A stretch of 64,000 nt of DNA from an uncultured virus (IMG/VR IMGVR_UViG_3300020048_000096) (Duplodnaviria; Heunggongvirae; Uroviricota; Caudoviricetes), in IMG/VR virus record IMGVR_UViG_3300020048_000096, positions 1 to 64,000 of that record; one strand, 5' to 3'. This document shows positions 1-44,211 of the stretch, one piece after another. Within the stretch, counting starts at the first letter, position 1, and each line of letters starts with the position of its first letter. A model generated the notes under the pieces. It did not search any database and had not been told where the DNA came from. It was given only the letters and a program-made list of their open reading frames with translations. A program made the position numbers and the translations under genes.

Positions 1-64
1 AATAGTTTCTCATGGTGTAAGTTATACACACTATTAGGTTCAATGTTTAGCCTTGTCTATTTTA

Positions 65-248
65 AAAACTCTCTGTCCCAATTCAGCTATGGATAGTCAA
101 TCTCGATTCTGAGTATTGAACCACTTTTCTGACAAACGCGACCGCCTGATAATAGTCTGGAACAGCGCACATCATAGGCAAATGCTATGAAGGGCGCACC
201 TATACGGTTTTCCTTATTTCCTGTTTATCATCAAAAACAGAGAGTTTT
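65..248 (-). ncRNA. candidate structured RNA downstream of ORF 252-494
   Basis: Perfect 12-bp inverted repeat (aaaactctctgt 65-76 / acagagagtttt 237-248) encloses internal hairpins (tcaat-ctc..gag-t-attga; gcgc..tcatag..ctatga..gcgc). No ORF; GC-richer than flanks. Confidence 0.4.
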
Positions 249-251
249 ATA

Positions 252-494
252 TTAAAAATAACTTCCTTCGAAGTCTACATTTACAGCAGGTTTCTTATAA
301 GTTGATTTCTCTTCAACTATTTTCAAGGCTTCCTCTCGGTTTACCGCTTGAAATGGCAGAACTACGATGTGACAAAATGAACTATCTTTAGCGTCTTCAA
401 TATCACGTTGATCGAAATACCTTTTGGCTTGGTAGGAACCATTTTCATGTTTATATCCCCACCAGATTTGAGTATTTTTAGCTGTGCTATTCAT
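252..494 (-). CDS. hypothetical phage protein
   Basis: 80-aa ORF in a tightly packed minus-strand gene run. Confidence 0.7.
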   Translation of the reverse strand: MNSTAKNTQIWWGYKHENGSYQAKRYFDQRDIEDAKDSSFCHIVVLPFQAVNREEALKIVEEKSTYKKPAVNVDFEGSYF

Positions 495-852
495 AACAAA
501 GTTCTGCAGATTCTAAAGGGTCTTCTGGTTCTTCTGAAAAATTATCTTCATCTAAACTCCATGATTCATAGTCAGACATTAAGGAACCGTCGAAATTTAA
601 CACGACTATTTGACGTTCTTCAACTAATCTCCTTAACTCATTTACTAATTCTTCAACCTGCCAACAACCATTTTGTCCACGATCTGACTGAATGCAAAAT
701 TCAATAATCGTGTCATTAACACAGATGTTGTGAATATCGAACCACTCTTCATCGCTTCTTGTCTGAAGCAGGGCCATTGCATTTAATACGATTGGAGCGT
801 GTGATGCTTCTTTAAGCTCTATGGTGAAATCACCTTTAACGTACGTTCCCAT
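487..852 (-). CDS. hypothetical acidic protein
   Basis: 121-aa ORF, overlaps the next gene by 8 nt. Confidence 0.7.
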   Translation of the reverse strand: MGTYVKGDFTIELKEASHAPIVLNAMALLQTRSDEEWFDIHNICVNDTIIEFCIQSDRGQNGCWQVEELVNELRRLVEERQIVVLNFDGSLMSDYESWSLDEDNFSEEPEDPLESAELCYE

Positions 853-853
853 A

Positions 854-1036
854 TTACTTTTCTTCTTCGTTATATTTACAATCTACTGATTGTATGGAAG
901 CTTTGTTTCCAACCCATACTGTTCCAAGTTGATGTTCTATTTCATCTTCCAACAAGTCAATTTCAATACCATTGAAAGCTGCTTCTTCGATTATAGCATC
1001 CGCGAATGCTATTTTTGCTAGGTCTAACTCACTCAT
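854..1036 (-). CDS. small acidic hypothetical protein
   Basis: 60 aa, ATGA-coupled to the upstream gene. Confidence 0.65.
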   Translation of the reverse strand: MSELDLAKIAFADAIIEEAAFNGIEIDLLEDEIEHQLGTVWVGNKASIQSVDCKYNEEEK

Positions 1037-1227
1037 TTGCTGAAATTTTGAAGTTTAGTCTTTATCTGCATCACGAACAGCGATACTCCGGCAACAAGAA
1101 CAATGGTTACACAAGTTAAAAACACTTTTGCAACTCCGAACAAATTCTCAAGTACGGAAAACATTATGGCACCTAAAAAGCCTATTATTAATAGGCTTAG
1201 GAACAAGTTTAATTTAGTCTTTTTCAT
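1033..1227 (-). CDS. small membrane protein (2 TM helices)
   Basis: Two hydrophobic stretches with basic termini. Confidence 0.7.
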   Translation of the reverse strand: MKKTKLNLFLSLLIIGFLGAIMFSVLENLFGVAKVFLTCVTIVLVAGVSLFVMQIKTKLQNFSK

Positions 1228-1237
1228 TTGGATAGCT

Positions 1238-1435
1238 TTATACTCTTGATTTAAGAGTGGTTAATTCTTTGTTAATACGGGTAATGTCTTTTTCGGTAAG
1301 AGGAACTAAATAGTCCACTTCTCTTACAGGTTTAACATTAGCTTTTAATTGTTTTTCCAATCTTGCGATCACAGCAATTCTTCTGCTTACTTGTGCAGGT
1401 GTTTTAGAGGCAACTCCATTAGTCTTTTTTGACAT
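1238..1435 (-). CDS. small basic hypothetical protein
   Basis: 65-aa ORF with A-rich leader. Confidence 0.65.
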   Translation of the reverse strand: MSKKTNGVASKTPAQVSRRIAVIARLEKQLKANVKPVREVDYLVPLTEKDITRINKELTTLKSRV

Positions 1436-1454
1436 AACTTCTTAGTTTTAAGGT

Positions 1455-1760
1455 TTATAATTTTGCTTTTTTGACAGGAACTAAAGTGTAAGATATTTCC
1501 TCAGTTTCTTCTTCCTGACCTTCTAAAAAAGGTAGTGTTTTAGGAAAACCAGTGTTGTGTTGATAAATCGTTTGGGCTATTAATGCACTTATAGCGTTTC
1601 TGTATAAAACTGCCGCTACTGCCGCGTCTTTCCGGTCTTTGCGCTCTGCATTTAAGTATTGTTTTGCAACAACGTCTGCAAGCTTAATATTCGCCTGTAT
1701 CAGATGATTTACGTGTTTAATCGATTGAGGCACTACTAATGCTTTTTTGGTTTCTGACAT
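1455..1760 (-). CDS. hypothetical protein
   Basis: 101 aa; start lies in the 32-bp repeat shared with the start of ORF 1717-2223. Confidence 0.65.
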   Translation of the reverse strand: MSETKKALVVPQSIKHVNHLIQANIKLADVVAKQYLNAERKDRKDAAVAAVLYRNAISALIAQTIYQHNTGFPKTLPFLEGQEEETEEISYTLVPVKKAKL

Positions 1761-2223
1761 CTCTTTTAAATTGGATTAGTTTACGATTTACTTCAATTAG
1801 TTCTTTAGGAATCTCAATGTATTTTAACTGTGGGTTGTAGCGTAATATTTCTATAATATATGCGTCTGATATATGTGCGAGAGCTCGTTTCTTAGCTAAT
1901 TCTCTAATACCATTTCTATATTCGGAATCTGTTTTATACCGATTAACCTTACTAACGCGAATTAACTTTATCAGTTCTTTATTTTTTAAATTCCACGCTT
2001 TTTTTAATACATAATTTCTTTCTTTGTTTTTTTCATTCCATATTGCCTGTGAAGCCCTTTTTTTAGCAATTTCTTCAGGATTGTTTTTTAAATTCTCCTT
2101 CTGATAAGCTATTTTACATATTTTACAATTATGTTCTAAGCCAAATTTTCCAGATTTATAAAAATACTCTAAAGTCTTAGGCTTCTCTTCACCACACTTA
2201 GTGCATTTTTTGGTTTCGCACAT
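1717..2223 (-). CDS. Zn-binding (CxxC...CxxC) basic protein, paralog 2
   Basis: KKCTKCGEEK...HNCKIC N-terminus of the type seen in phage HNH-associated proteins; Lys/Arg-rich helical body; no HNH catalytic motif seen. Confidence 0.7.
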   Translation of the reverse strand: MCETKKCTKCGEEKPKTLEYFYKSGKFGLEHNCKICKIAYQKENLKNNPEEIAKKRASQAIWNEKNKERNYVLKKAWNLKNKELIKLIRVSKVNRYKTDSEYRNGIRELAKKRALAHISDAYIIEILRYNPQLKYIEIPKELIEVNRKLIQFKRDVRNQKSISSASID

Positions 2224-2251
2224 CTCTTTTAAATTGGATTAGTTTACGATT
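1757..2251. repeat. identical 32-bp direct repeat at two gene junctions (1757-1788 and 2220-2251)
   Basis: acatctcttttaaattggattagtttacgatt occurs twice, each time at a gene-end/next-start overlap. Confidence 0.9.
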
Positions 2252-2860
2252 CAAGTCAATCACTTCTTTTGGAATATCAATATCTTTAATAAGAGGGTTG
2301 CATCTGATAATATTTCGTCTTATATACCCATCAGTCAGTGCTTCAGTGCGTTCCCTGGATTCAGTATTGCGTTTAACCTTGTGAGTGTGATGATATCCTT
2401 TATTTTGTTCATTGACATACTCTTTGTTATTTGCTCTAAATACACGAGTTTTTTCCAGACCGCGTTCTTTAACATCAGGCCTGTTATAAAAAGATTGACC
2501 TTTATCAGATTTTCTAAACAATTGGTTTGCTTTTTGTTTTTTGTTACGGTATTCTTCATCTGAGCTATATCGTTCTTTTTGTTGAGCTATAAATCTCTTT
2601 TTATTTTCTTGGTAAAATGTTTTTAATCGCGTTGCCTGGTGTTCTTTATTATCACCTGCCCATTTTTTCCAACGTAAATATTTTTCTTCAAGTTTATCTG
2701 GATTCTTTTGGAAATACTCTTTAATGTATGCCGAAAAATATAGTTTTATACACTTTTTACAGTGAGGGTTGAATCCATCCTTAGATTTCTTCAGTTTGCC
2801 AAAATGTTCTGTTGTTAATTCCTTCTCTTCACCACATTTGGTGCATTTCTTAGTTTCCAT
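2198..2860 (-). CDS. Zn-binding (CxxC...CxxC) basic protein, paralog 1
   Basis: Same N-terminus (KKCTKCGEEK) and C-terminus (IPKE.I..NRKLIQFKRDVRNQK) as ORF 1717-2223. Confidence 0.75.
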   Translation of the reverse strand: METKKCTKCGEEKELTTEHFGKLKKSKDGFNPHCKKCIKLYFSAYIKEYFQKNPDKLEEKYLRWKKWAGDNKEHQATRLKTFYQENKKRFIAQQKERYSSDEEYRNKKQKANQLFRKSDKGQSFYNRPDVKERGLEKTRVFRANNKEYVNEQNKGYHHTHKVKRNTESRERTEALTDGYIRRNIIRCNPLIKDIDIPKEVIDLNRKLIQFKRDVRNQKMH

Positions 2861-2873
2861 AAATAGTAGGTCG

Positions 2874-3338
2874 TTAGTTTACAACTATAATAGGTTTGCC
2901 AATATTAGCCTCTTGAAGTTTTTGCATTTTGTAAATGAACATCTTACTCATAATTTTCTTATAATAAGGTTGCTGTTTTACCGTAAGAGACATTTTCTGT
3001 GATATAATAGAGTTCATAAAGTTGAACTCCCATTCTGTGAGAATTTTACCATTATTACATTCTGTCACAAGGTCTTTGTTACAACGCTCTATTTCTTCTT
3101 GAGCAATGAAATGTTCCGCACAATTATGACCTATAATTAAAGTATGTCCTGTGGTGTCATTTAAAAGGTAACAACATCTTTTAACGTTGGTTTGTCCACA
3201 AGGACAATTTCTTGCTTTTGATGAATAAAATTGCATTAGAACACTCCATTCATTTTTAGCCTCTTCCCATAAGGACGAATTGCTCAACTCAAGAATATTT
3301 TCTTGAAGAGACTTTCTAGCAGATGTTTTAAACTTCAT
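2874..3338 (-). CDS. hypothetical protein with Cys/His cluster
   Basis: CPCG...CC...GHNCAEH, probable Zn ribbon. Confidence 0.7.
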   Translation of the reverse strand: MKFKTSARKSLQENILELSNSSLWEEAKNEWSVLMQFYSSKARNCPCGQTNVKRCCYLLNDTTGHTLIIGHNCAEHFIAQEEIERCNKDLVTECNNGKILTEWEFNFMNSIISQKMSLTVKQQPYYKKIMSKMFIYKMQKLQEANIGKPIIVVN

Positions 3339-3538
3339 AATTTGGTATTGTTATTCATCAATAAGGCAGTAACGAAGACTTGTTATAACTGCTTTCTGCT
3401 ATCTCTTCTGAGAAAGTCCGACTTATTAAATGAGTTTATAATGTTCTTGCGGAAATATCTCCGTATGTGCTTCCTTTTTGAATCGTGAAGGAAATAACAC
3501 GCAATTAATCAAGTAGTCTAACACTTAACATAATTTTG

Positions 3539-3620
3539 CTCTCTCACAAGGTTGCAACCCTTGCAATATATCATGTTTCCAAATGGTTAGATGATATAGA
3601 CCTGCGGTCGGATGAGAGAA
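3539..3620 (-). ncRNA. non-canonical tRNA-like cloverleaf RNA (candidate)
   Basis: Minus strand folds as UUCUCUCA/UGAGAGAG closing stem, GACC-GCA-GGUC arm, UAUAUCAU/AUGAUAUA arm and CAAGG-GUUGCAA-CCUUG (5 bp + 7-nt loop) abutting the closing stem. Confidence 0.4.
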
Positions 3621-3644
3621 GTACTAATAAAAAATAATGAATAT

Positions 3645-3751
3645 TGACAGCACTCCCTTTTGAGAATAATTAATAATTTTTAACTTCTCAGTTTTAAATT
3701 GTGCAAAAAAGAGTGCGGTCGGTAGACAGTTTTAACCCTCCTAACTGTCTA
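3645..3751 (-). ncRNA. adjacent long stem-loops (candidate ncRNA or leader)
   Basis: gacagcactc/gagtgcggtc outer stem with inner tgagaa/ttctca, plus tagacagtt/aactgtcta hairpin at 3723-3751. Confidence 0.35.
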
Positions 3752-3941
3752 AAAGATTTTAAGTATTGCGATGTTGTATACAAGCTGAAAGAATGTGCTC
3801 GTCTTCGTAAATAATGTTATCTGATTGTTTTAAATCATCATCATTCCAATCTTTTATGTTCTGAAGATGTCGCTTTAAACTTTTTCTTAGTGACTCTTTT
3901 AAATTTTCTTGCGTTTAAGCGCAAATCGGGAATCATAAGTG

Positions 3942-4220
3942 TTATACTTCTATTTTGATGTAGTACTTGTAATCAGTATTAGTTGTCTTAGATTGTTTAA
4001 TAATGTAGTACTTACCTATTGAAGACATATACACAGGGTATGTAATATCATTGATTTTCAATGTGTAAATTGTTTTTGCTGAGACTACTTCAGATTTTAC
4101 CGGCTTGATGTCAATAAGCTCGTTGTTCTTTCCAACTTTATATGTTGAAGTTGATGATGTTTGGGCTGATAATGTTACTGTCAATAGCATCACTGCCAGA
4201 AGAGCGATTAGCTTTTTCAT
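3942..4220 (-). CDS. secreted protein with Sec signal peptide
   Basis: MKKLIALLAVMLLTVTLSA|QT; Gln at +1 is typical of Bacteroidota SPase I substrates. Confidence 0.75.
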   Translation of the reverse strand: MKKLIALLAVMLLTVTLSAQTSSTSTYKVGKNNELIDIKPVKSEVVSAKTIYTLKINDITYPVYMSSIGKYYIIKQSKTTNTDYKYYIKIEV

Positions 4221-4439
4221 AAGTATAGTTATTTAAAGTTAGATTAGTTGTTAGGTATTGTGAGAAGAATAACTACTTGTCAATTCTGTTTACGGGGCAT
4301 TACCCAACAAGCAGTTAATTTCTCAATCTTGAAACGTTTATGAAACGGAATATTAAAAAATGAAAGGATTTTAAATATAGTTTTGGCAGCAAATCGCGTT
4401 TACTGCCGTTAATTAATTTTTGTAATGATTAACTTTAAA

Positions 4440-4640
4440 CTAACTATTGCCTTTTGTAATATCATTAAAGAACTCTATAAAATCCATTGATGTTTTATTT
4501 ATAGGCCTTTCAACTTCTTTTATTTCTACTTTGTTTTTAATATGTTCCCGAACCTTTATTTTAGCTTCAAGTAAATCATTGGCTTCAACTTTATATTTAA
4601 AGTCTATGCCTTTTAGCGTGCATATAAAATTATAAATCAT
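4440..4640 (-). CDS. hypothetical protein (start trimmed to MIYNFICT)
   Basis: ATG at 4640 overlaps the end of upstream ORF 4630-4797; the track's longer start overlaps that gene extensively. Confidence 0.6.
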   Translation of the reverse strand: MIYNFICTLKGIDFKYKVEANDLLEAKIKVREHIKNKVEIKEVERPINKTSMDFIEFFNDITKGNS

Positions 4641-4797
4641 AACCTTTATTTTGCCAAAACATTTGACAATTTCCGTTTTTGTCGATAGGTGTTTCCGCGA
4701 AATAAGACTGCCTAAATTCATTTTGTTTGGCTGTAAACCTATAGCACAAGTCTTTAAGTTTACAATTTATGCCCGTACATTTACTGATATCTGTCAT
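4630..4797 (-). CDS. small Cys-rich phage protein, 55 aa (not in ORF track)
   Basis: MTDISKCTGINCKLKDLCYRFTAKQNEFRQSYFAETPIDKNGNCQMFWQNKGYDL; four Cys, coupled to the downstream gene. Confidence 0.7.
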   Translation of the reverse strand: MTDISKCTGINCKLKDLCYRFTAKQNEFRQSYFAETPIDKNGNCQMFWQNKGYDL

Positions 4798-5343
4798 AAT
4801 GTGGATTATTATACGTTTATAGGTTCGTTTTGTGTATTATATTACACATTGTAAGATTTGTTGGTTTGAACTCTAAAAGGGTTACGATCCCTTATATCAC
4901 ACAATGTCATTCGCTAAAGTGTGATGTCTAGTTACCTTGTAGGCCCTTGACGCGTTTCAATTAGAGTTATTATTTGTTGAATTTACACTAAACGGAAACT
5001 CTTATTATGAATCAACTCTATATAGTAGTATAGAAGAAGAAACAAATAGTAAATGTCTTAGTAGTGTTGTTTTCTGCAAACAAGTTTAGGTATGTACGTG
5101 TGGTTTTTTACTTACACGTAATTTTAGTTCTCAAAATGTCAAATACCTTGTAGAGCTTTAAGACTATTGTGCTAATAGCTATCTAACCCAGTCTGTCTCT
5201 GTGATTTTCACAGGAATAATACGATTGGTCTATGAGGAAGAATAGGGCTGTTGGGATGTTCTCCATCCAAACACACGCACGCAAGCTCTCAGAAAGTATT
5301 TACTTTACCTGGATATGCTGTGTTGTTTGCTTATTACTCTTTT

Positions 5344-5384
5344 TATAGAACTTATGTATTATTTACTTGTCAAATGTAGAACTT
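5344..5384 (-). promoter_or_regulatory. Bacteroidota-type -7 element (TACATTTG) with two AAGTTCTAYA boxes
   Basis: Reverse complement of caaatgta (5371-5378) fits TAnnTTTG; boxes at 5344-5353 and 5375-5384. Confidence 0.55.
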
Positions 5385-5520
5385 AATTGCTTATTGTACA
5401 ACTTAATTATAAAACATCTGCAACAAGAAAACTTATGTTACTGATTATCAGTACCAAAGTCTACTTGTTGCACACGGTGGATACCCGTGTTAGAGATGTT
5501 TCCATTAGGTGTAGTGGTTA

Positions 5521-6063
5521 TTACTTACCGCTTAGGTCAGCTTTCGCTAATTCGGGAGTGGCCACTTTAGAAACGGATTTAATTCTGGCTTGTTCGGCAC
5601 GTATATACTCACCATTGTCGTGAGCAATAAGAGTGTCTACGTCGTTTTCATCTTCAGTATACATACTGAAACGGAAGATGCGTTCTCCGTCAAGCGTACA
5701 AGGGATCTTAGTCTCACCGGCAATCTTGACTTGCTTATCTAAGTCTTTCGTATTTTCAACGAAGCCTTGAGACAGTTCGCTTTCAAGCATTTCGGTAACC
5801 ATAATTCTACCCGGCATACCGTCTTTGGCCCAATCAGCTACCATTTCTCTCAGAGAATCTAATTCGCCATTTAATGGACAGTGGCGAGTCTCTGTGACAA
5901 CGCTGGTACGAGTTGGAGAAGTTCTCTTCACGTGAGTAACTACCTCTTGAATGTGGGCCCAACCCTGTATAGGCTGACCTTCAACTTGATTTGGAAAAGG
6001 CGTAACTGCGTTGTCCTTTACGAAAATGTTTCTTTTACGTTTAATAGATGGTGAATTCGTCAT
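5521..6063 (-). CDS. early protein, paralog A (possible ssDNA-binding protein)
   Basis: Shares PGRI, K.AG, DG, D.LIAHDN..IR and terminal L.GK with ORF 6824-7384. ATG at 6063 preferred over the TTG at 6147, which lies inside the promoter motif. Confidence 0.7.
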   Translation of the reverse strand: MTNSPSIKRKRNIFVKDNAVTPFPNQVEGQPIQGWAHIQEVVTHVKRTSPTRTSVVTETRHCPLNGELDSLREMVADWAKDGMPGRIMVTEMLESELSQGFVENTKDLDKQVKIAGETKIPCTLDGERIFRFSMYTEDENDVDTLIAHDNGEYIRAEQARIKSVSKVATPELAKADLSGK

Positions 6064-6138
6064 AATGTTTAATAGGTTTTTGTGATTATTATAAAATGGT
6101 GAGCGTCTCTCACCAATGTTTTGAAGCATATTTAATAG

Positions 6139-6352
6139 TAACTGCAACAGGGGAACGTAGTGTTTGCTGGAACGTAGTGCGCAGCGAAGCGGGTTTCGTG
6201 TTGTTTGTTAGAATGTACTGAGCGCTGTGTCGAAGACTCGTGTCGTTTCTCGTAACATAGTGAGCGTTGAAGAGTCGAAGACAACCGATGTAAAACGTAC
6301 TGAAACGCTTAACAACCGTTATAATGCTAACTGCACAAGGGGAACGTAGTTC
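6139..6352 (-). promoter_or_regulatory. tandem phage early promoter motifs with a cluster of C-GNA-G mini-hairpins
   Basis: taactgca-N3-ggggaacgtagt at 6139-6161 and 6328-6350; + strand triloops AC-GTA-GT, GC-GCA-GC, GC-GAA-GC, GTC-GAA-GAC (twice), GAAC-GTA-GTTC. Confidence 0.6.
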
Positions 6353-6400
6353 TGTAGGGCTGATATTGGTTATTGTGAGAACTAAATGGGTTGGTAATAA

Positions 6401-6431
6401 AAAGAAAAAAGCACGGCTGTTACACCGTGCT
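6401..6431 (-). terminator. intrinsic terminator
   Basis: agcacgg/ccgtgct stem plus U-run on minus strand just after the stop of 6439-6720. Confidence 0.8.
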
Positions 6432-6438
6432 AAGGAAG

Positions 6439-6720
6439 TTATTCCCTTAATTTTAGAAAGAGCGCCACTGTCAAATTATGTGCAATTTGTAGTCCATAAA
6501 CAGGACTACTTAAACAGCCATTGACATCTATAACGAATGTGTTTCCAAAGCTATCTGACAACGCAGGTACTTCTTTATAGTCAACAACACCCGCTTTAAT
6601 ATCTAACTGTAGTTGCTTCACAGCTATTTCAGTTAGTTTCAAATCTCCACAAGTAAAAAACTGTGGTTCAAATACTTTTATTCCGTACTTATTGTCGGAA
6701 TTGAAAATTAGTTTATTCAT
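6439..6720 (-). CDS. hypothetical early protein
   Basis: 93 aa; own terminator and a degenerate promoter copy (tgaatggggttaagtagt, 6747-6764). Confidence 0.7.
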   Translation of the reverse strand: MNKLIFNSDNKYGIKVFEPQFFTCGDLKLTEIAVKQLQLDIKAGVVDYKEVPALSDSFGNTFVIDVNGCLSSPVYGLQIAHNLTVALFLKLRE

Positions 6721-6784
6721 AATGTTAAGTTTTTTAATGCTGAATGTGAATGGGGTTAAGTAGTGAATAATGAACTAAGAAAAA

Positions 6785-6814
6785 GAAATAAAAGCACGGC
6801 TATTACACCGTGCT
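6785..6814 (-). terminator. intrinsic terminator (near-identical copy of 6401-6431)
   Basis: aaagcacggctattacaccgtgctaag versus aaagcacggctgttacaccgtgctaag. Confidence 0.8.
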
Positions 6815-6823
6815 AAGAACTAA

Positions 6824-7384
6824 TTATTTACCATCAAGAGAAACTTTCGCTGTCTTTTCAGCAGGCTGTTTTTCAGAGGCTACTTTTTTAAGCGCTCTGT
6901 CTTGCCTAATTTCATCGCTGTTATCGTGAGCAATAAGCACGTCTTCAACAGAACCTGTTTGGTCGTAAGTGCGCTTGGAAATAATACCAATGCCGTCAAC
7001 GGTTAATAACACGCCGTCTGTACCAGCACGTTTTTTATCATTGTTGTAAGACTTAGAGTCTTTAATGGCATCAGGAAGATTTTCATCATCCAACCATTCA
7101 CGTGTGCAAATACGACCAGGAATTAATCCGTCGTCTTCCCACATAGCAAGGAAGGTACTTAAATCGTCGTGTGCACCGTTGATATTAGCAAATTTGTATT
7201 TTCGAACAGCTTTTGTGCTGTTCAAAAGCATTTGCATTTCAGGACGTACTTCCATAAGCGTGATAAAACCCTCTTCAGGAGTATCCTCAAATGCTGTGAT
7301 TGCAGAACCTTCAGGGTTCGGCATTACAAATAAACCGCGACGAATTGATGCATCATCTTTAGATGCGTAGATAGATTTTGACAT
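6824..7384 (-). CDS. early protein, paralog B
   Basis: Clear motif sharing with ORF 5521-6063. Confidence 0.75.
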   Translation of the reverse strand: MSKSIYASKDDASIRRGLFVMPNPEGSAITAFEDTPEEGFITLMEVRPEMQMLLNSTKAVRKYKFANINGAHDDLSTFLAMWEDDGLIPGRICTREWLDDENLPDAIKDSKSYNNDKKRAGTDGVLLTVDGIGIISKRTYDQTGSVEDVLIAHDNSDEIRQDRALKKVASEKQPAEKTAKVSLDGK

Positions 7385-7414
7385 AATTTTAAGTTTTTAA
7401 ATTGTTAGACTATA

Positions 7415-7436
7415 TGAATAAGGGGAACGTAGTTCC
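7415..7436 (-). promoter_or_regulatory. phage early promoter motif with GGAAC-GTA-GTTCC hairpin
   Basis: tgaataaggggaacgtagttcc begins ~30 nt upstream of ATG 7384. Confidence 0.65.
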
Positions 7437-7596
7437 TTGGGCTATAGAAGAAGGACTATTGTTAGTAGTCCCTGTCTTCTATGTCTTCACCGAATGTGGC
7501 AATATGTAATAGGTTTTCTTCAAGCTTATCTAAGTTGTTCAGCATAATATAAGTTTAAAATTGTTTAAAAGGCACCAGTATGATGCCTTGATGATT

Positions 7597-7806
7597 TTAG
7601 CGATAATCCCTGAAAACTCTTCTAACGAAGCTACGTTCTCTGATATCACTAATAGATGTTTTGTTCCGATACTCGTCTTCCCACCAATGTACATTAGCTC
7701 TATAGCGAGCATCTAACTTGTCTATATATTCCAAGTGAGAGTTGATGTTCGTCTCTTCTTTATATATAAGCTCTTCTAAGAGTGGTGCGTGAAATTCTAT
7801 TTGCAT
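7597..7806 (-). CDS. hypothetical protein
   Basis: 69-aa ORF with AT-rich leader. Confidence 0.6.
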   Translation of the reverse strand: MQIEFHAPLLEELIYKEETNINSHLEYIDKLDARYRANVHWWEDEYRNKTSISDIRERSFVRRVFRDYR

Positions 7807-7835
7807 AATAATAAGGTGTTAATTAGTTAAAATAG

Positions 7836-7870
7836 AAAAGGGGGAATAGAGCATTTTACTCTATTCTCCC
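7836..7870 (-). terminator. intrinsic terminator
   Basis: gggggaatagag/ctctattctccc stem plus U-run on minus strand. Confidence 0.7.
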
Positions 7871-7904
7871 GTTAGAACATTTATAGTCGAGCCGAAGCTC
7901 AAGA

Positions 7905-8009
7905 CTATTGTTCCTTGCAGTACTCCCTGTAGTAATCCTGTGCATCAGCGATGCACCAAGCTACGATAGAGAAACCATTGATGTACCAAACTTGTTTGGA
8001 CTCAGTCAT
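7905..8009 (-). CDS. 34-aa peptide (not in ORF track)
   Basis: MTESKQVWYINGFSIVAWCIADAQDYYREYCKEQ, between promoter motif 8039-8057 and terminator 7836-7870. Confidence 0.6.
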   Translation of the reverse strand: MTESKQVWYINGFSIVAWCIADAQDYYREYCKEQ

Positions 8010-8038
8010 TTTCGCCGTAATTTTAAATTAATACTAAA

Positions 8039-8057
8039 TGAATGGGGGGTACGTAGT
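8039..8057 (-). promoter_or_regulatory. phage early promoter motif copy
   Basis: tgaatggggggtacgtagt has the same spacing as the other three full copies. Confidence 0.6.
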
Positions 8058-8209
8058 TTTTGCAAACGACCGGAGGGAGTTTGTATTAGGTGGTACCCAC
8101 ACCCTTCCCCTCAGTAAAATCCCTGTCCCGTAAGCAAAACTATTTTTTAGGAAACATAATATTCTTTCTTTCAGTGAGTTATCTCACTTTTTGTAAGGTT
8201 AAGAGATAG

Positions 8210-8257
8210 AGGTGTCCATCTTGTAGGTATCCACCTTATATCTGAGGTGTCCACCTT
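8210..8257. repeat. three 13-bp quasi-palindromic direct repeats
   Basis: AGGTGTCCATCTT (8210), AGGTATCCACCTT (8225), AGGTGTCCACCTT (8245). Confidence 0.8.
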
Positions 8258-8262
8258 AATGC

Positions 8263-8302
8263 AAAAAAAAAAAACCCCTCTCCTATTGGGGTAGGAAAGG
8301 GG
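8263..8302 (-). terminator. strong intrinsic terminator
   Basis: cccctctccta/taggaaagggg stem followed by a 12-U run on minus strand. Confidence 0.75.
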
Positions 8303-8353
8303 AGGGTAGGGGTTACGGGGTAATAATCAGGGTTGAAAAAATATTCCTAATTT

Positions 8354-8953
8354 TTATTCTGTGTCCTTTTCACAAAGAGAATATATAAAAGCAGTGGCAG
8401 CGATATTAGATACTTCTAGAACATTGCTTGCATTCAAGTAAGACTTGTCGTATTTTCTTCTCCAGTTATAAACTGCGTCATAATAAGCCATTGCAATATT
8501 TGTGGTCCAGGCTTCTTTGAAACCTTCATCTTCTGAGAAGGCCTCACATAATATATCAACTGCTTGCTTTACTGTCGTATCTTGTATAGCAGTGCCTTCA
8601 ATATTGCATTTCTCACAAGCAATGTTGGTTTTTATTATATTCGCACAAGAAGCTGCTTCATCAGTAATACCTCTCGTATAACCTTTACAGAAAGTAATTA
8701 GACTTTCTTTAGAAATTGTTTTTTCAGGAAAGATGTCCTCATAAGCATTGAACATATTGCTTACTCCTTCGAATATTGTGTATGTATTCGGAAGTTCTTT
8801 TTTCCACAATAGTACTTTCTTGAAATTATAATGCGTTTTCACTATGAATAACGGATTAACACTTCTAAGTTGTGACAGGGCCTCACCGGCTTCTACGTCG
8901 ATCAATGTTCTGTAAGATGATAATTGAGATGCTGATAAATAAGAAATTTTCAT
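8354..8953 (-). CDS. hypothetical protein
   Basis: 199-aa ORF. Confidence 0.7.
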   Translation of the reverse strand: MKISYLSASQLSSYRTLIDVEAGEALSQLRSVNPLFIVKTHYNFKKVLLWKKELPNTYTIFEGVSNMFNAYEDIFPEKTISKESLITFCKGYTRGITDEAASCANIIKTNIACEKCNIEGTAIQDTTVKQAVDILCEAFSEDEGFKEAWTTNIAMAYYDAVYNWRRKYDKSYLNASNVLEVSNIAATAFIYSLCEKDTE

Positions 8954-8991
8954 AATAATAATAAATAAAGATTAGAGATTAAAGATTAGTT

Positions 8992-9210
8992 TTAAGGATA
9001 TGCATCAATATTGATACTTATGGTTATCGCTATTGTTGCAAAAAGACTTACGAGAGATACGGCTAAAAAGTAACCGGGTATGTCAACGCCGGTCCAGTCA
9101 AAAGGACTCCATTCATCATTTACAAAATATAATATGGAGAATTGTATCATTAATAAAAGCACGAAGAAATATGTGTAGTATTTAAGAAAGAGTTTTATTT
9201 TGTTTATCAT
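8992..9210 (-). CDS. small membrane protein (2 TM)
   Basis: Two hydrophobic helices around W.PFDW. Confidence 0.65.
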   Translation of the reverse strand: MINKIKLFLKYYTYFFVLLLMIQFSILYFVNDEWSPFDWTGVDIPGYFLAVSLVSLFATIAITISINIDAYP

Positions 9211-9212
9211 AA

Positions 9213-9836
9213 TTAAGGGTTTTTCTTTTTAAAATAAAGCTTATAAATAGTACTTATCCAATCAAGTATTGATGCTTTTTGCTTTGCTGGCTCTAGTATT
9301 ACTTTAGGCGTTTTAGGAAATAACTCTTCCATTATTAATTGCTTTGGTAAAAACTTATGGCAATAATAACTTGAACTAAAAGTGATTTTATCAACGGTGA
9401 TACCTTCTGCGTTTTTAAATTTCATCCTCTTGTCAAACATTAGCAATTGTAGTTCTTTATTCATAAAGAGTTGTTTTGGTGCCGCGTCGTTTAACCAGGT
9501 GTTACTCATAATAAGGGCAAATGGTTTGTTAAAGCTCAATGCTCTTTCGAAGAATTTACGCTTGGCTGTGAAAGGCGGGTTACTGATAAGCACATCCCAT
9601 TGTACTGGCTGGTACTTGAAGAAATCCTTGCCTTCGTCGATGTGAGAGAAAATCACAACATTGGTCTTACTAATCTGTTTTACAAATTCGCTATCCTTAT
9701 TGTCAAAAGGACACCACACTACAGCGCCTTTAGGGATATATTTTAAAATAGGTTTTACGCCATAGTCCGGAGTAAAACACTCGTCGTTGCCTCCTTGCGG
9801 ATACAGCAATTCTTTACTGTTAATTTTCTGTGTCAT
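9213..9836 (-). CDS. DNA amino (N6-adenine) methyltransferase-like protein
   Basis: Catalytic NPPF motif (LISNPPF), plus DE.FTP and VWCPFD motifs typical of small phage MTases. Confidence 0.75.
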   Translation of the reverse strand: MTQKINSKELLYPQGGNDECFTPDYGVKPILKYIPKGAVVWCPFDNKDSEFVKQISKTNVVIFSHIDEGKDFFKYQPVQWDVLISNPPFTAKRKFFERALSFNKPFALIMSNTWLNDAAPKQLFMNKELQLLMFDKRMKFKNAEGITVDKITFSSSYYCHKFLPKQLIMEELFPKTPKVILEPAKQKASILDWISTIYKLYFKKKNP

Positions 9837-10239
9837 CTTGTTTATTTGGTTTGTTTAAGGGATTCGTATTAGGCCTGCCTTTTATATAGCGTGTTGTAAC
9901 ATCTGGGAAACTTGGGAAAATGGTCTGAGAAGATGTAACATCTTCTTCTTGATAGACCTCTTTAGGATGTTGTAGTTTTTCCGTATCTATGTTCCAACTT
10001 TCGTTACAGTCCGGGCAGCTCAAAAAACGATAATTAGCGTCTGAAGAAACAAGCGTTAAGATGCTTCTGTTGAAATTATCACCGTCCTCGTATATTGTTT
10101 CAAATCCTTCTACCATTTTGGAGACCTTCATATCTTCCGTAAATCGAAGGGCTTCTATCAGTCTCACACCACCGTATAAGTCAGCAACAATCCAGTCGGA
10201 ACCACAACTAGGGCAGTGTGTTAATTTATTAAAATCCAT
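9820..10239 (-). CDS. Zn-ribbon protein
   Basis: CPSC...CPDC. Confidence 0.7.
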   Translation of the reverse strand: MDFNKLTHCPSCGSDWIVADLYGGVRLIEALRFTEDMKVSKMVEGFETIYEDGDNFNRSILTLVSSDANYRFLSCPDCNESWNIDTEKLQHPKEVYQEEDVTSSQTIFPSFPDVTTRYIKGRPNTNPLNKPNKQDDTEN

Positions 10240-10252
10240 AGTTTATATAAAT

Positions 10253-10320
10253 AAGTTCTACAAAAATACATAATATATTGTAGAAGTTAACCTTTTTTTA
10301 GTTAAATTTGTAATGTAGAA
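10253..10320. promoter_or_regulatory. divergent promoter region at the strand switch
   Basis: TAnnTTTG on minus (10261-10268) and plus (10303-10310); AAGTTCTACA box at 10253-10262 and inverted AACTTCTACA at 10279-10288. Confidence 0.65.
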
Positions 10321-10331
10321 ACAACATACTT

Positions 10332-10616
10332 ATGAAACCAAAGAAAAACACTGAAGTCATTGGTATTGAATTACCTAAAGAAGATACAACAGATACTCGA
10401 GAAAAACTAATTGAGTATTATACAATGCAAAACGAAATTGTAGAACTCAGGGCAAAAAACGTAGGATTTCACCGTGATATCGCTGTTGCAGAATATCAGC
10501 GTCTGGAAGCATTGATTTTGATGGCCAGGCTACAAGCTGGCCCAAAAGAAGAAGCGCCTGTTGGGACTAAGGCTCCAGTTGCAGAACCGGAGAGGCCTAT
10601 AATGAAACCAGTGTAA
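10332..10616 (+). CDS. hypothetical coiled-coil protein
   Basis: 94 aa; first gene of the plus-strand arm. Confidence 0.75.
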   Translation: MKPKKNTEVIGIELPKEDTTDTREKLIEYYTMQNEIVELRAKNVGFHRDIAVAEYQRLEALILMARLQAGPKEEAPVGTKAPVAEPERPIMKPV

Positions 10617-10620
10617 TCCA

Positions 10621-11007
10621 ATGGATGTACAGAGAATTGTAAAAAAAGTAAGAATGAGCAAGCAGGATTTGGTCCAATACCAAATTTTGACAGAGTTGTT
10701 TATGAAAAAGATCTCCCTGAATCAATCGGATATAGAGCTTTTGACATTGCTTGGTTTATGGGGTTCTTTAGGATTAACCGAATTTTGCGAAAAAGCCGCA
10801 GACATCGTATATAAAGATACACCTAGGGTGATGGCTCGAATTCAAAATGTTCGTAATCGTTTGGTAATCCTAGAGCGAAAAGGACTTGTAGTAAAAGAAT
10901 CAGCAACAAAAAAGAAAAAAATAATAAGTCTAAGTGATACAATATCTGTTTTGGTAACGGGAGATATATTGCTAGACTACAACATGCTGTCTGTTGATTC
11001 CAATTAA
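10621..11007 (+). CDS. putative winged-helix DNA-binding protein
   Basis: MarR-like pattern (IELLTLL...IQNVRNRLVILERKGLVVK + wing). Confidence 0.55.
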   Translation: MDVQRIVKKVRMSKQDLVQYQILTELFMKKISLNQSDIELLTLLGLWGSLGLTEFCEKAADIVYKDTPRVMARIQNVRNRLVILERKGLVVKESATKKKKIISLSDTISVLVTGDILLDYNMLSVDSN

Positions 11008-11392
11008 ACGAAAACAACTAGTGAGCATGGTCTCTCTATCCACTTCTATTTCGGAGTCGCTTGTTGATGACATTGTGGTAAGTTATTACAAAGACATATA
11101 TCGTCAGCTTTCAAAGGGAGAAAACCTTCATGTGGATGTTCCTAATTTAGGAATTTTTTCAATAAAACCATGGTCTTTAAAAAGGAAACTGGAAAAAATG
11201 GATGCTCAGATAAAAAATTTAAGGAAGCCGCGAAGTATGCAGTCTTATGCTATTCATAAAGAAAAGTTAGATCGACTTGAACACTTGCACATATTGCAAG
11301 AGAAGGTGGATGAGGAAATTTTACAAAAAAAACGCATTAAACTATTAAGAGCTGAATATGAGGAATCTACTTCAAACGATTTGGGAGAATAA
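10994..11392 (+). CDS. IHF/HU-like DNA-binding protein
   Basis: HU-like N-terminal helices and V.VPNLGIF motif. Confidence 0.65.
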   Translation: MIPIKRKQLVSMVSLSTSISESLVDDIVVSYYKDIYRQLSKGENLHVDVPNLGIFSIKPWSLKRKLEKMDAQIKNLRKPRSMQSYAIHKEKLDRLEHLHILQEKVDEEILQKKRIKLLRAEYEESTSNDLGE

Positions 11393-11669
11393 AAAACAAA
11401 TAATGGAAGGCTTGTTAAACAACATCGTGAAGCAAGATTCTGTTGAAATTATAGCAAAAGCGAGATGGGGAATTTGTCAAGATTGTGAGAGCGTTGATAT
11501 TGATGGCTCAGAATGTGCAATTCCCGGAACACAACCTTGTTGTAAAGAGTGCGGATGTTCGCTGTCTTTAAAATTAAGAAGTCTTTCATCAGATTGCCCT
11601 AAAGGATATTGGTCATCTGTTCTAACTATAGAAGAGGAGAATAAACTGATGAATTTAAGCTCTAAGTAA
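11358..11669 (+). CDS. Cys-rich Zn-binding protein
   Basis: C..C...C...PCC..CGC.L..K.R.....CP.G.W; position upstream of the nuclease as in crAss-like phages. Confidence 0.75.
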   Translation: MRNLLQTIWENKKQIMEGLLNNIVKQDSVEIIAKARWGICQDCESVDIDGSECAIPGTQPCCKECGCSLSLKLRSLSSDCPKGYWSSVLTIEEENKLMNLSSK

Positions 11670-11670
11670 T

Positions 11671-12495
11671 ATGGCAATAATATTCGAAGAAGAGTCTCAT
11701 AAATACTCATCGGTAGATGCTGCAGAAAAAATTGAATGGGTGAGTGTTACTACCTTGGTTGCCAAATACAAGGAGCATTTTGACGGAAAAGCGATTGCTG
11801 AAAAATCATCTAAAAAGAAATTAAGCAAATGGTTTGGAATAGCTCCGAATGAAATACAGCGCATTTGGAAAAAAGAATCGGACAGGGCTTGTGGACTGGG
11901 TACTTTTTATCATAAGCAACGCGAAGATGAACTTCTGGGATTGAATACTATTACCAGAGGAAATGAAATACTACCGTTGTTTCAACCTATTGTAAACGAA
12001 AAAGGATATAAGGTTGCTCCAGAACAAAGGCTTAACCCGGGTATTTATCCAGAACACATGTGCTATCTGAAATCTACAGGAATCTGTGGACAAAGCGACC
12101 TTGTAGAAGTCTATGATGGAAAAGTTCATATTACGGATTACAAAACCAATAAGGAAATACAAATGAACAGTTTCGTAAACTGGGAAGGCGTTAGTAAGAA
12201 AATGCTGAGACCGTTAACCCATATTGAAGACTGCCACATCAACCATTACTCACTTCAGTTATCTATTTACCTCTATACGATTTTAAAACACAACCCTCAT
12301 TTGCAGGCGGGTAATCTTATTATTCATCATATTTCTTTTGAGGAAGAAAATGAGAAAGATGAGTACGGATACCCTCTTCATAAACTTGATGAAAGCGGAG
12401 AGCCTATTGTAAAAAGTGTGACTATTTATAATTTACCATATTTAAAAGACGAAGTAATTAAAATGTTGGAGCATCATAAAGCCCAGAAAAGATAA
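11671..12495 (+). CDS. PD-(D/E)XK nuclease (crAss-like conserved)
   Basis: SVTT, GTFYH, E..., GQSDLV, ITDYKTNK and Y.LQLS.Y motifs. Confidence 0.85.
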   Translation: MAIIFEEESHKYSSVDAAEKIEWVSVTTLVAKYKEHFDGKAIAEKSSKKKLSKWFGIAPNEIQRIWKKESDRACGLGTFYHKQREDELLGLNTITRGNEILPLFQPIVNEKGYKVAPEQRLNPGIYPEHMCYLKSTGICGQSDLVEVYDGKVHITDYKTNKEIQMNSFVNWEGVSKKMLRPLTHIEDCHINHYSLQLSIYLYTILKHNPHLQAGNLIIHHISFEEENEKDEYGYPLHKLDESGEPIVKSVTIYNLPYLKDEVIKMLEHHKAQKR

Positions 12496-13025
12496 TGGAA
12501 ACGATACGCCTATTTGATATTCAAAACGATGTCATCGTTCCTACAGAACACTGCTTTACAATCAAGCCGTTGAAAATGATTATGGATAAATATCCAGAGA
12601 ATTGCTTGGAAATTTACCAGTATATTTTTTACATGACTTGTCCTAATCCGGTATTGAATCCTTTTTTTAATGTGGTGGCTTCTGAGAAAGAAGATACCAT
12701 TCTTGCCAACATGATAATTACAGGAAGTGGCTTTAGCCTTGAAGATCCTTTGATAATGAGTGGTGTTGAAATATGCAAGACTTTATATTCTACACCAACA
12801 TTCAGGGCCTACATGGGAATTTCATCAATGCTCGACCGTCTGGCAAAGTATATGGAAGAGACTCCGATCGAACACGGAAGAGATGGAAATATTAACTCCA
12901 TTGTAAATGCTGCCGCCAAATTTGAATTGATAAGAAGCTCATTTAAAGGAGCTTATAAAGACCTTGCTGAAGAGCAAAAAGGAAGCGTAAGGGGCGGTCA
13001 ATCCTTGAGCTACGATCAAATGTAA
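12495..13025 (+). CDS. conserved crAss-like protein, candidate terminase small subunit
   Basis: Helical 176-aa protein ending VRGGQ; synteny between nuclease and TerL. Confidence 0.55.
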   Translation: METIRLFDIQNDVIVPTEHCFTIKPLKMIMDKYPENCLEIYQYIFYMTCPNPVLNPFFNVVASEKEDTILANMIITGSGFSLEDPLIMSGVEICKTLYSTPTFRAYMGISSMLDRLAKYMEETPIEHGRDGNINSIVNAAAKFELIRSSFKGAYKDLAEEQKGSVRGGQSLSYDQM

Positions 13026-13042
13026 CCACTAATTTTAATAAT

Positions 13043-13258
13043 ATGGCAACTTTAATTTATCTACTCATTTTTTACATCGCTGGTGTGATAATATCGCACG
13101 TCTTGTTAAACATTCATCAAAGCTTTAACAAAAAGTTAGTAACCGCTATAGACGCAGGGCGATATTGGAATTTGAGATTGCTTTCATGGTATACATTTTT
13201 TACAATTGTTGGAAGTCTTGTATCAGAGACCTATAATGATTTTATTATAAATAAATAA
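13043..13258 (+). CDS. small membrane protein
   Basis: Two hydrophobic segments. Confidence 0.6.
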   Translation: MATLIYLLIFYIAGVIISHVLLNIHQSFNKKLVTAIDAGRYWNLRLLSWYTFFTIVGSLVSETYNDFIINK

Positions 13259-13392
13259 AATAGAAAACGGGCGCTTAAATAGCTGCATAAATTTTAAAAA
13301 TAAACCAATATTTATGAATCACCGGGCATGTTGTTTAGTACTGCTTTGGCGAATGATTGAATTATTTTCAATTAACTTTTAAAAAATAAAAT

Positions 13393-13524
13393 ATGGCAGT
13401 AAAATCGAATTCGGGAAACGGTGAAAAGATAATCACTGGTGTGAGAAGAAAGGGCAAGGCCACTAAGCAAAAAAATAAAAACAAAGCATCTAAATCTATT
13501 TACAGAGGGCAAGGGCATAATTAA
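13393..13524 (+). CDS. 43-aa basic peptide ending YRGQGHN (not in ORF track)
   Basis: MAVKSNSGNGEKIITGVRRKGKATKQKNKNKASKSIYRGQGHN; its TAA overlaps the TerL ATG (TAATG). Confidence 0.7.
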   Translation: MAVKSNSGNGEKIITGVRRKGKATKQKNKNKASKSIYRGQGHN

Positions 13525-24756: not shown

Positions 24757-25314
24757 ATGGCAATAAAACATCACTTGTCGATTGACATTCCAGAAACAGC
24801 AAATAAATATACGCTTATTATTAAAGACGCGAGTATTTATGGCGTAAACCTACCAATAGAATGCAGGAGACTTGATATCTATGTGCCTGGATTTACCATA
24901 CCTGTTTACATTACAGAGCAGTCAGACGAGCCGTTCTTTAAGAATTTCAGCGCAAAAGACTTGGAATTACAACCATTAAACAATACAGATTTGTACCCAC
25001 TGCCTGATGGCGTATATAAAATTAAATATTCTACTGCTCCAAACGAGGTTGTATTTGTAGAGTATTATCATTTACGAGCTACTCAGTTGCTAGAAAAATA
25101 TTACAAAATGTTATGTAAAGTACAACTTGACAGCTATGAGCCAAATGCTTCTCAACATGAAAAATTACATGAACTTCGAGAAATCCGAATGTATATAGAA
25201 GCCGCTAAGGCAAAAACAGAATACTGTCATGCTCCTGAGAAAGGCATACAGCTTTTAACGGCCGCTAAAAAACTTTTAGAAAAGTTTGAAACGGGCTGTT
25301 ACTCAACTTGTTAA
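24757..25314 (+). CDS. putative tail hub / fibre-attachment protein
   Basis: LPDGVY.IKY motif, Cys-containing helical C-terminus; synteny. Confidence 0.55.
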   Translation: MAIKHHLSIDIPETANKYTLIIKDASIYGVNLPIECRRLDIYVPGFTIPVYITEQSDEPFFKNFSAKDLELQPLNNTDLYPLPDGVYKIKYSTAPNEVVFVEYYHLRATQLLEKYYKMLCKVQLDSYEPNASQHEKLHELREIRMYIEAAKAKTEYCHAPEKGIQLLTAAKKLLEKFETGCYSTC

Positions 25315-25332
25315 ATTTTTAAAACCAACACT

Positions 25333-25455
25333 GTGATTTGTCCCAACTGTAAATCAACTTTGTCCTGTTCTTGTCAAAAGCATATTGCTACAGACGGAAA
25401 GGAAGTTTGCGCTCGTTGTAGAGTGACCTACGAACAAATTTTACTTAAAAAATAA
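25333..25455 (+). CDS. 40-aa Cys-rich Zn-finger peptide (GTG start, not in ORF track)
   Basis: MICPNCKSTLSCSCQKHIATDGKEVCARCRVTYEQILLKK; fills the intergenic gap, preceded by an aaccaac leader. Confidence 0.7.
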   Translation: MICPNCKSTLSCSCQKHIATDGKEVCARCRVTYEQILLKK

Positions 25456-25460
25456 TAATT

Positions 25461-25691: not shown

Positions 25692-25692
25692 T

Positions 25693-27519: not shown

Positions 27520-27525
27520 GTTATT

Positions 27526-44132: not shown

Positions 44133-44211
44133 TTATTAAAACACAAGGATTTACCAGAACTATTTCGTAAATTCTTTATGTGCACCCACATTTACTAAAA
44201 CTATAACGAAT

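Follow-up and report, generated by a model that had tools for sequence, protein, structure and literature searches.

A repeated, lineage-specific motif ahead of small genes in a crAss-like phage is a candidate phage-specific promoter

Results

Motif copies and their setting in the window

We analyzed the first 64,000 nucleotides of an uncultured virus record (IMG/VR IMGVR_UViG_3300020048_000096), a stretch that we call the window; it is the first 64 kb of one 75,594-bp contig, has a G+C content of 36.8%, and includes five masked stretches of ten Ns. Between positions 6129 and 8062, the window carries four strong copies and one degenerate copy of a short motif that, read on the minus strand, consists of ACTACGT(T/A)CCCC, six nucleotides (nt), an A, two nucleotides and (T/C)AG. 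Given the placement of the copies between terminators and start codons, their strand, and the conservation of the motif in related phages, we consider it highly probable that this motif is a phage-specific promoter. A first-pass annotation of this DNA had proposed that the copies are promoters for the phage's own virion RNA polymerase (vRNAP), recognized as hairpins in the manner of coliphage N4; the promoter-like position, the gene strand and the conservation held up, but the recognition of a hairpin did not.

With up to one mismatch allowed, GGGGWACGTAGT occurs four times in the 64-kb window, each time on the + strand (at 6150, 6339, 7422, and 8046), compared with a mean of 0.14 occurrences over 100 shuffles, none of which reached four. 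The 7-mer ACGTAGT by itself is not enriched (6 observed versus 4.49 expected), and five of its six occurrences lie on one strand inside 6155–8057. When we applied a 20-nt weight matrix to the whole 75,594-bp contig, the four sites scored 28.3–31.7 bits and the next site 15.9 bits, and the best scores obtained with the same matrix in 20 shuffles ranged from 10.6 to 20.1 bits. These counts, matrix scores and shuffles confirm the four strong + strand copies that the first-pass annotation had described. The degenerate copy that it had placed at 6747–6764 is real as well: a family model that allows insertions and deletions detected it at 6731–6766 with an E-value of 0.0018, the second best in the window, and beyond the five copies the next match reached only E 2.5. 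The upstream half of this copy is deviant (one extra base, and G changed to T), and its downstream half matches the family consensus.

On the minus strand, every copy is preceded by a terminator-like hairpin or by a non-coding stretch, and four of the five lie 35–90 nt before a small gene; in three of them, the ATG comes 35–41 nt after the C-run begins. From high to low coordinates, and with all features on the minus strand, an operon running from 10239 to 8354 is closed by a strong intrinsic terminator (8302–8275), behind which ~220 nt of non-coding DNA lead to the first candidate promoter copy (8025–8062, core 8038–8057; family model E 4.6e-6), whose C-run starts 40 nt from the ATG of a gene for 34 amino acids (aa; 7908–8009). 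This gene is followed by a terminator-like hairpin (7866–7844), a 69-aa gene, a weak hairpin, and then the candidate copy at 7402–7438 (core 7414–7433; E 0.0027), which holds the sole 5-bp palindrome and whose C-run lies 41 nt from the ATG at 7384 of a 186-aa gene (6824–7384). An intrinsic terminator behind the 186-aa gene (6814–6793) stands ~30 nt ahead of the degenerate candidate copy, from whose C-run it is 35 nt to the ATG at 6720 of a 93-aa gene (6439–6720), which in turn ends at an intrinsic terminator (6431–6410). The candidate copy at 6320–6352 (core 6331–6350; E 0.018) comes next, and after ~170 nt without an open reading frame (ORF) of at least 25 aa there follow a partial tandem copy (6168–6178; the upstream half alone, without the C-run), the candidate copy at 6129–6164 (core 6142–6161; E 0.013), a hairpin with a T-run (6115–6097), and the ATG at 6063 of a 180-aa gene (5521–6063). 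The first-pass annotation had all copies upstream of minus-strand transcription units; this is so for four of them, but not for the copy at 6331–6350, with its ORF-less downstream stretch.

Three of the motif copies have terminators 20–60 nt upstream. Transcripts of these units must therefore begin in the interval that separates terminator and ATG, where the copies have no element in common other than the motif.

Homologous motifs in related phages

For comparison, we used the best 80 of 145 IMG/VR stretches that encode a relative of the window's terminase, on contigs of up to 125 kb; terminase identity was 64–70% for most rows (range 58–75%). The exact motif of the window is absent upstream of the terminases of these relatives. 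We aligned the five window copies with 22 instances taken from 10 relatives (alignment A1, 27 in all) and built the sequence-only family model on this basis. Over 78 IMG/VR loci (934 kb, both strands) and at E ≤1, 37 of 37 matches of this model fell on the strand opposite the terminase, 22 of the 37 being the model's own training copies. A second sample consisted of 69 metagenome loci (169 kb), fetched via the family of the 180- and 186-aa proteins, and here the model gave 89 matches in 48 loci at E ≤0.1 (67 distinct rows), all 89 on the gene strand. The search of related genomes that the first-pass annotation had suggested as a check yielded homologous motifs at the same place and on the same strand. 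Other ways of finding the motif were given up: the exact window motif produced 22 single-copy matches across IMG/VR, roughly the chance number by a rough estimate, and was set aside; counts of repeated 9-mers in the relatives were too noisy, and an initial regular expression lacked stringency.

The consensus of the second sample reads CAAC, five nucleotides of any kind, A, A or C, CCCC(C), another five nucleotides of any kind, A, TTCAG, and an A/T-rich stretch. Across the 67 distinct related copies, the C-run holds 2 bits per column, and CAAC, A27, and A32 hold 1.3–1.8 bits. The conserved elements are the C-run (a G-run on the template strand) and the downstream A-TTCAG block; pairing is not conserved.

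The setting of the motif is likewise shared with the relatives. Taking the window and the relatives together, an ORF of at least 25 aa begins 28–60 nt past the start of the C-run in 31 of the 36 distinct instances. Homologs of the 180- and 186-aa proteins are found once or twice per locus, on the same strand and 8–10 kb upstream of the terminase, in 15 loci, and a motif of the same architecture heads the relatives' 163–186-aa paralogs, a gene for a 31–34-aa peptide, and a gene for a 75-aa membrane protein. Three relatives of ~120 kb (95–98% complete) contain five, three, and four matches, confined to 25146–29190, 92347–93601, and 56034–57741, respectively, so that the motif clusters in these complete genomes span 1.3–4 kb. 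In one relative, G001, genes for a helicase, DnaB, a primase, Sak4, an exonuclease and a DNA polymerase lie downstream of the cluster, and for this reason the array would head what is the replication arm of complete relatives. In the 69 metagenome loci, contig starts did not accumulate behind the motif.

One part of the motif varies by lineage. The block between AAC and the C-run (A1 columns 14–19) has an identity of 0.74 within a lineage and 0.33 between lineages; the corresponding values are 0.90 and 0.59 for AAC (columns 10–13), 0.95 and 0.90 for the C-run (columns 20–23), and 0.31 and 0.28 for the flanks (columns 2–8). At this block, the window has ACTACGTT, and its relatives instead have ACACCTAAA, CCTTCAA, TCATGACA and others, CAACACCTAAA being another type among them. 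A block that is kept within a genome and differs between lineages argues for a reader that also differs between lineages and hence is phage-encoded. Within the window, the candidate promoters of the 180- and 186-aa paralogs share the same 12-mer despite a protein identity of 32%, which suggests that the motif is under selection.

The candidate reader of the motif

The contig belongs to a crAss-like phage: its terminase, portal and capsid proteins match crAss-type PHROGs, CrAss_Ring_2 is matched, and CrAss_Ring_1 is matched more weakly, below the cut-off. The closest named relatives of its terminase are Crassvirales, at 22–26% identity, and CheckV puts the completeness of the contig at 62%. Small minus-strand genes occupy 252–10239, and from 10332 onward structural genes and three giant ORFs lie on the + strand, two of the latter, at 50040–54335 and 65719–72465, flanking the one described next.

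A giant ORF of 3779 aa on the + strand (54356–65695, of which 54356–64000 fall in the window) contains DFDVD at residue 2717 and is our candidate for the reader of the motif. That a crAss-type polymerase is encoded from 54356, as the first-pass annotation had it, agrees with the DFDVD sequence and with the collinear alignment of this ORF to gp66 of phage phi14:2 (DFDID block, E 8e-5; a second block, E 0.006). All five of the relatives compared have a homolog, with 37–45% identity over the catalytic 1000 residues versus 64–68% for the terminase; a polymerase that is far less conserved than the terminase is as expected if its specificity drifts. A protein search of IMG/VR with the polymerase region returned one weak locus only. 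This polymerase is the only transcription enzyme recognized in these genomes. Searches for Sigma70_r2 and r4_2, with positive controls, found neither domain in the contig of the window or in four relatives with a completeness of 95–100%, and no T7-like polymerase (PF00940) was found in the five records, but the control for that search matched in no genome either. In phi14:2, gp66 makes rifampicin-resistant early transcripts and transcribes single-stranded DNA, and the middle promoters look host-like, according to the accessible part of the report on this phage (10.1101/2020.03.07.982082).

On balance, we favor the view that the motif is read by the injected polymerase; the likeliest reader would be the giant DFDVD two-barrel enzyme encoded at 54356–65695, delivered together with the DNA as has been shown for gp66 of phi14:2. 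With a similar modest preference, we propose that the five copies would serve as compact phage-specific promoters, each heading a small, individually terminated immediate-early unit. On the minus strand, such a promoter would comprise a lineage-specific block of ~10 nt (ACTACGTT here), the invariant C-run and, ~6 nt further on, A-(T)T(C/T)AG. Transcription would start within the last of these blocks, leaving a leader of ~20–27 nt. Recognition would be of the linear sequence, and the palindrome in two of the copies would be a by-product of the specificity block of this lineage.

A fuller account, which we put forward tentatively and rate at slightly under an even chance when all of its parts are taken jointly, is that the motif would be the promoter code of the injected crAss-type two-barrel polymerase in a freshwater clade, linear and bipartite. 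The enzyme would recognize the C-run and A-TTCAG through its conserved parts, and the upstream 10-nt block would confer specificity for the lineage, evolving in step with a polymerase that diverges fast, by analogy with T7-like phages. The enzyme would transcribe only the 2–4-kb array of tiny genes, comprising the 31–34-aa peptide, a membrane protein, and two paralogs of unknown fold, before the host polymerase takes over.

Points against this reading and alternative explanations

Several observations weigh against the reading that we favor. The two relatives closest by terminase gave nothing at E ≤1 with the family model, and there we found only variants by hand, ahead of the 31–34-aa peptide gene. 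Some metagenome loci may represent the same phages as IMG/VR contigs, which makes the two strand counts less than fully independent. The family model detected nothing in the first 50 kb of phi14:2 (best E 0.66), and we saw no similar motif upstream of the early genes at the early end of crAss001; the motif is therefore not general to the Crassvirales. For phi14:2 itself, the accessible text describes early transcripts without a detectable common upstream motif and a gp66 that in vitro prefers single-stranded DNA and showed no sequence specificity (10.1101/2020.03.07.982082). Furthermore, a lineage-specific block demands a phage-encoded reader, which is not necessarily a polymerase, and the succession of CAAC, ~19 nt and TCAG may loosely recall the promoters of extracytoplasmic function (ECF) sigma factors.

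The last two points lead to the explanation that we regard as the main alternative, albeit an unlikely one, in which host RNA polymerase would be redirected to the motif by a specificity factor of the phage (or an alternative factor of the host), whether of the MotA/AsiA type or a divergent sigma factor. The units headed by the motif would then be delayed-early or middle rather than immediate-early. Such a factor could be hidden among the window proteins, most of which have no family match, or could be expressed first from the operon running from 10239 to 8354, which has a host-type box upstream; the motif-less early transcripts of phi14:2 fit this alternative as well. Against it, neither sigma domain was recognized in the five records, four of which are 95–100% complete. 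The four window proteins of the upstream operon are unmatched in the 80 related loci, and the first-operon proteins of G001 are unmatched in the window's contig, so this operon differs between the window and its relatives and is unlikely to encode the reader.

The distribution of host-type promoter sequences also bears on this alternative. Primary-sigma promoters of Bacteroidota have the consensus TTTG at -33 and TAnnTTTG at -7. TAnnTTTG has 70 matches in the window, none of them on the minus strand in the intervals that hold the motif and the following start codons (6063–6161, 6720–6766, 7384–7438, and 8009–8062), and the absence of this box from the motif-headed units speaks against host-type transcription of them. 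In the divergent intergenic region at 10240–10331, such boxes stand at 10261–10268 on the minus strand and at 10303–10310 on the + strand, ~22 nt before each ATG, and may be host-type promoters of a class distinct from the motif. Another repeated element, AGTTCTAYA, which in many cases runs on into AAA, occurs 10 times exactly and 62 times when one mismatch is allowed, versus 42 expected. Its sites lie at 5344–5383 (-), 10254 (+), 10439 (-), 20588 (+), 33304 and 33324 (+), 34748 (+), 54206 (+), and 59293 (-); several copies are intergenic and near TAnnTTTG boxes, and one is 150 nt ahead of the giant polymerase gene. AGTTCTAYA is thus a candidate for a host-type middle-promoter class. Since the motif-headed units lack TAnnTTTG and the divergent region and AGTTCTAYA lie elsewhere, two promoter classes seem to exist in this genome.

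ECF-sigma promoters have AAC at -35, a spacing of 16–17 nt, and a CGT-type -10 element. The conserved CAAC of the 67 distinct related copies, at 1.3–1.8 bits per column, is an ECF-like feature, although the AAC of the window is offset by one base, and the layout of CAAC, ~19 nt and TCAG resembles the AAC/-10 arrangement, which favors a redirected host polymerase. The ~19-nt spacing to TCAG and the invariant C-run within the spacer are a mismatch to that class, as is the lack of Sigma70_r2 and r4_2 in the five records. A sigma-54 element, considered for the TTGCA found in two copies, was rejected, there being no GG element upstream and no TTGC in the relatives.

We consider it very improbable that the motif is something other than a promoter, namely an operator for a regulator or an RNA-acting leader or processing element of transcripts begun elsewhere. 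An operator or an element of a 5′ leader could likewise be expected just ahead of genes, and three 14-nt repeats at 8209–8257 hint at other protein-binding sites nearby. Set against this are the terminators 20–60 nt upstream of three copies, after which the motif is the sole conserved element before the ATG; moreover, we found no other shared promoter-like element and no conserved RNA structure.

The remaining alternative, N4-style recognition in which a C-GTA-G mini-hairpin would be extruded from the template strand and read as a structure by the virion polymerase, is the least likely of all, given how its central feature is distributed. Palindromes do occur as the first-pass annotation had stated: GGAAC-GTA-GTTCC in the 7425 copy and GAAC-GTA-GTTC in the 6342 copy form perfect hairpins, and the other two strong copies have stems of 2 bp (A-C/G-T). 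The degenerate copy has no stem. CGTAG is present on the template strand of four of the five window copies, and C-G-closed GNA triloops have an unusual stability: in the accessible text of PMC13037366, melting is at 70–76°C for mini-hairpins that have two G-C pairs and near 70°C for GCGTAGC. The preference of gp66 for single-stranded templates (10.1101/2020.03.07.982082) and the 3-nt loops of the N4 promoter hairpins (PMC4496689) likewise favor this idea. However, stems of at least four pairs are found in only two of the five copies, and the folding energies of these (-3.0 kcal/mol for the 7425 copy and -1.2 for the 6342 copy) are not below those of shuffles (fractions 0.08 and 0.76), with the limit that folding parameters may undervalue GNA mini-hairpins, so that a local mini-hairpin might still form in this one phage. 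The degenerate copy has no closing pair, yet it heads a gene and is the best fit to the downstream family consensus.

In the relatives, CGNAG is absent from all 22 IMG/VR copies and from all 58 copies of the second sample, and only two of the 58 have stems of at least four pairs, versus 0.8 expected from shuffles. The five proposed pairs are formed in 16.3% of cells versus 14.1% after shuffling, with 90 of 500 shuffles as high, and controls with the pairing frame slid along the motif gave equal or higher scores. We saw no compensating changes in this covariation check, which the first-pass annotation had also suggested; N4 promoter hairpins, by comparison, have 5–7 pairs with a 3-nt loop, and their pairing is kept by compensating changes, as far as the accessible text of PMC4496689 goes. 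As judged from these sequences, the palindrome is a feature of this one genome and is not conserved across the family, which corrects a tempting analogy with N4.

Genes and other features of the array

The 34-aa peptide gene (7908–8009, minus strand) has as its counterpart in relatives a conserved 31–34-aa gene that is likewise the first to be headed by the motif (relatives L025, L027, L030, L038, L041, L045, L050, L052, L063, L073, L075, and L083). These peptides have a common C-terminal end of the YCKE type, and in all of the lineages examined their gene comes first among those headed by the motif. The 69-aa gene (7597–7806, minus strand) lies between two terminator-like hairpins and has no recognizable promoter of either class; a C-run at the foot of the hairpin upstream of it gives a non-significant family-model match (7832–7848, E 6.1).

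The 186-aa protein (gene 6824–7384) and its 180-aa paralog (5521–6063, the start at 6063 having been picked by family alignment) belong to a large uncharacterized family with 606 cluster representatives at E ≤0.001, and members of this family are headed by the motif in relatives too. The 186-aa protein has a confident predicted structure (predicted local distance difference test score, pLDDT, 88.5). A word-index search with this protein matched only itself and no Pfam family was found; Foldseek gave nothing at E ≤0.001 in PDB or BFVD, and the best VIA-align Z-score was 3.5. For the 93-aa protein (6439–6720), no family match was found.

The terminators at 6410–6431 and 6793–6814 are nearly identical, with the stem AGCACGG...CCGTGCT and a single loop base different, which suggests a duplication of the whole cassette or concerted evolution. 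The ORF-less unit behind the copy at 6331–6350 (6162–6330, minus strand) folds no better than shuffles (z +0.83) and may be a leader or a small RNA; there was no tRNA or Rfam match in 1–14000.

The three direct 14-nt repeats at 8209–8257 (of the GAGGTGTCCAYCTT type, spaced by 15 and 20 nt) sit within the 220 nt of non-coding DNA that separate the terminator at 8302–8275 from the first motif copy, and could be regulator binding sites or an origin. The equivalent stretch in relatives contains other short G-run repeats (C-runs on the gene strand), for example two 19-nt copies at 4405–4468 of L050. Further along the minus strand, 4800–5520 and 3340–3940 are long stretches without a convincing ORF, the first of them behind two AGTTCTAYA copies. 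No Rfam match was found in either, and they recall the highly transcribed long intergenic regions of phi14:2 described in the accessible part of 10.1101/2020.03.07.982082.

Elsewhere in the window, the five masked 10-N stretches fall within the tail-gene region (38764–46133), where some ORF calls are cut. Of three DNA runs compared with the array, one contains the probable source contig and two, from two other studies and with identical tables, contain near-identical fragments of 6946–7442, with no starts or ends visible; no RNA run was listed as matching 5400–8500, and a megablast of 5500–9500 against a phage collection gave no match.

Discussion

The injected crAss-like RNA polymerase is known structurally, and the accessible account has it active only on single-stranded DNA and without specificity (10.1101/2020.03.07.982082); we found no promoter consensus for a crAss-type virion polymerase in those parts of the literature that our search covered. 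With its sharp definition, conserved position and lineage specificity, this short motif offers concrete templates for assays of promoter-dependent transcription and of specificity swaps. On the reading that we favor, it would also mark the first-expressed genes of this clade, namely the 31–34-aa peptide and the family of unknown fold with its 606 cluster representatives.

Phages phi14:2 and crAss001 are of the same order as the phage studied here, with terminase and ring proteins in common, and encode a polymerase of the same family. The first-expressed class of crAss001 is a small set of small genes (PMC8375218, PMC10136315). Unlike here, no early promoter motif is reported for either phage in the accessible text of these sources (10.1101/2020.03.07.982082, PMC8375218, PMC10136315).

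The P1–P3 promoters of coliphage N4 (PMC4496689, in its accessible part) resemble the array in being a few near-identical promoters, conserved over ~17–20 nt, that head the first genes within a few kb. The N4 polymerase is delivered with the DNA, and the window version of the motif contains a GNA-type triloop sequence. In N4, however, hairpins of 5–7 pairs are kept, whereas in the present phage not all window copies can pair and the relatives do not conserve pairing. The N4 polymerase is also of the T7-like kind, works with gyrase and SSB, and bears no relation to the DFDxD two-barrel enzyme. In the loop, it contacts a central G, where the window has a T (accessible text of PMC4496689 and PMC13037366).

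T7-group promoters are bipartite, extend from -17 to +6, and have phage-specific specificity positions, as far as described in the accessible part of PMC4496689. The motif resembles them in being compact and contiguous, with a lineage-specific block beside a general core and start and with near-identical copies in each genome, and differs in that its sequence is unrelated to theirs.

A further comparison is with Thermus phage P23-45, in which a pre-early motif was assigned to the two-barrel virion polymerase gp96 by means of mapped transcription starts and chromatin immunoprecipitation (accessible part of 10.1101/2022.12.01.518664). The motif there is AT-rich, in contrast to the C-run core found here, and the polymerase of the present phage is a giant protein of the crAss type that is not fused to the tape measure. 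What the two systems share is a polymerase of the two-barrel kind, packed in the virion in the case of gp96, and a conserved linear motif that stands ahead of a few genes, the first to be expressed in P23-45, and is carried by related phages that encode the polymerase.

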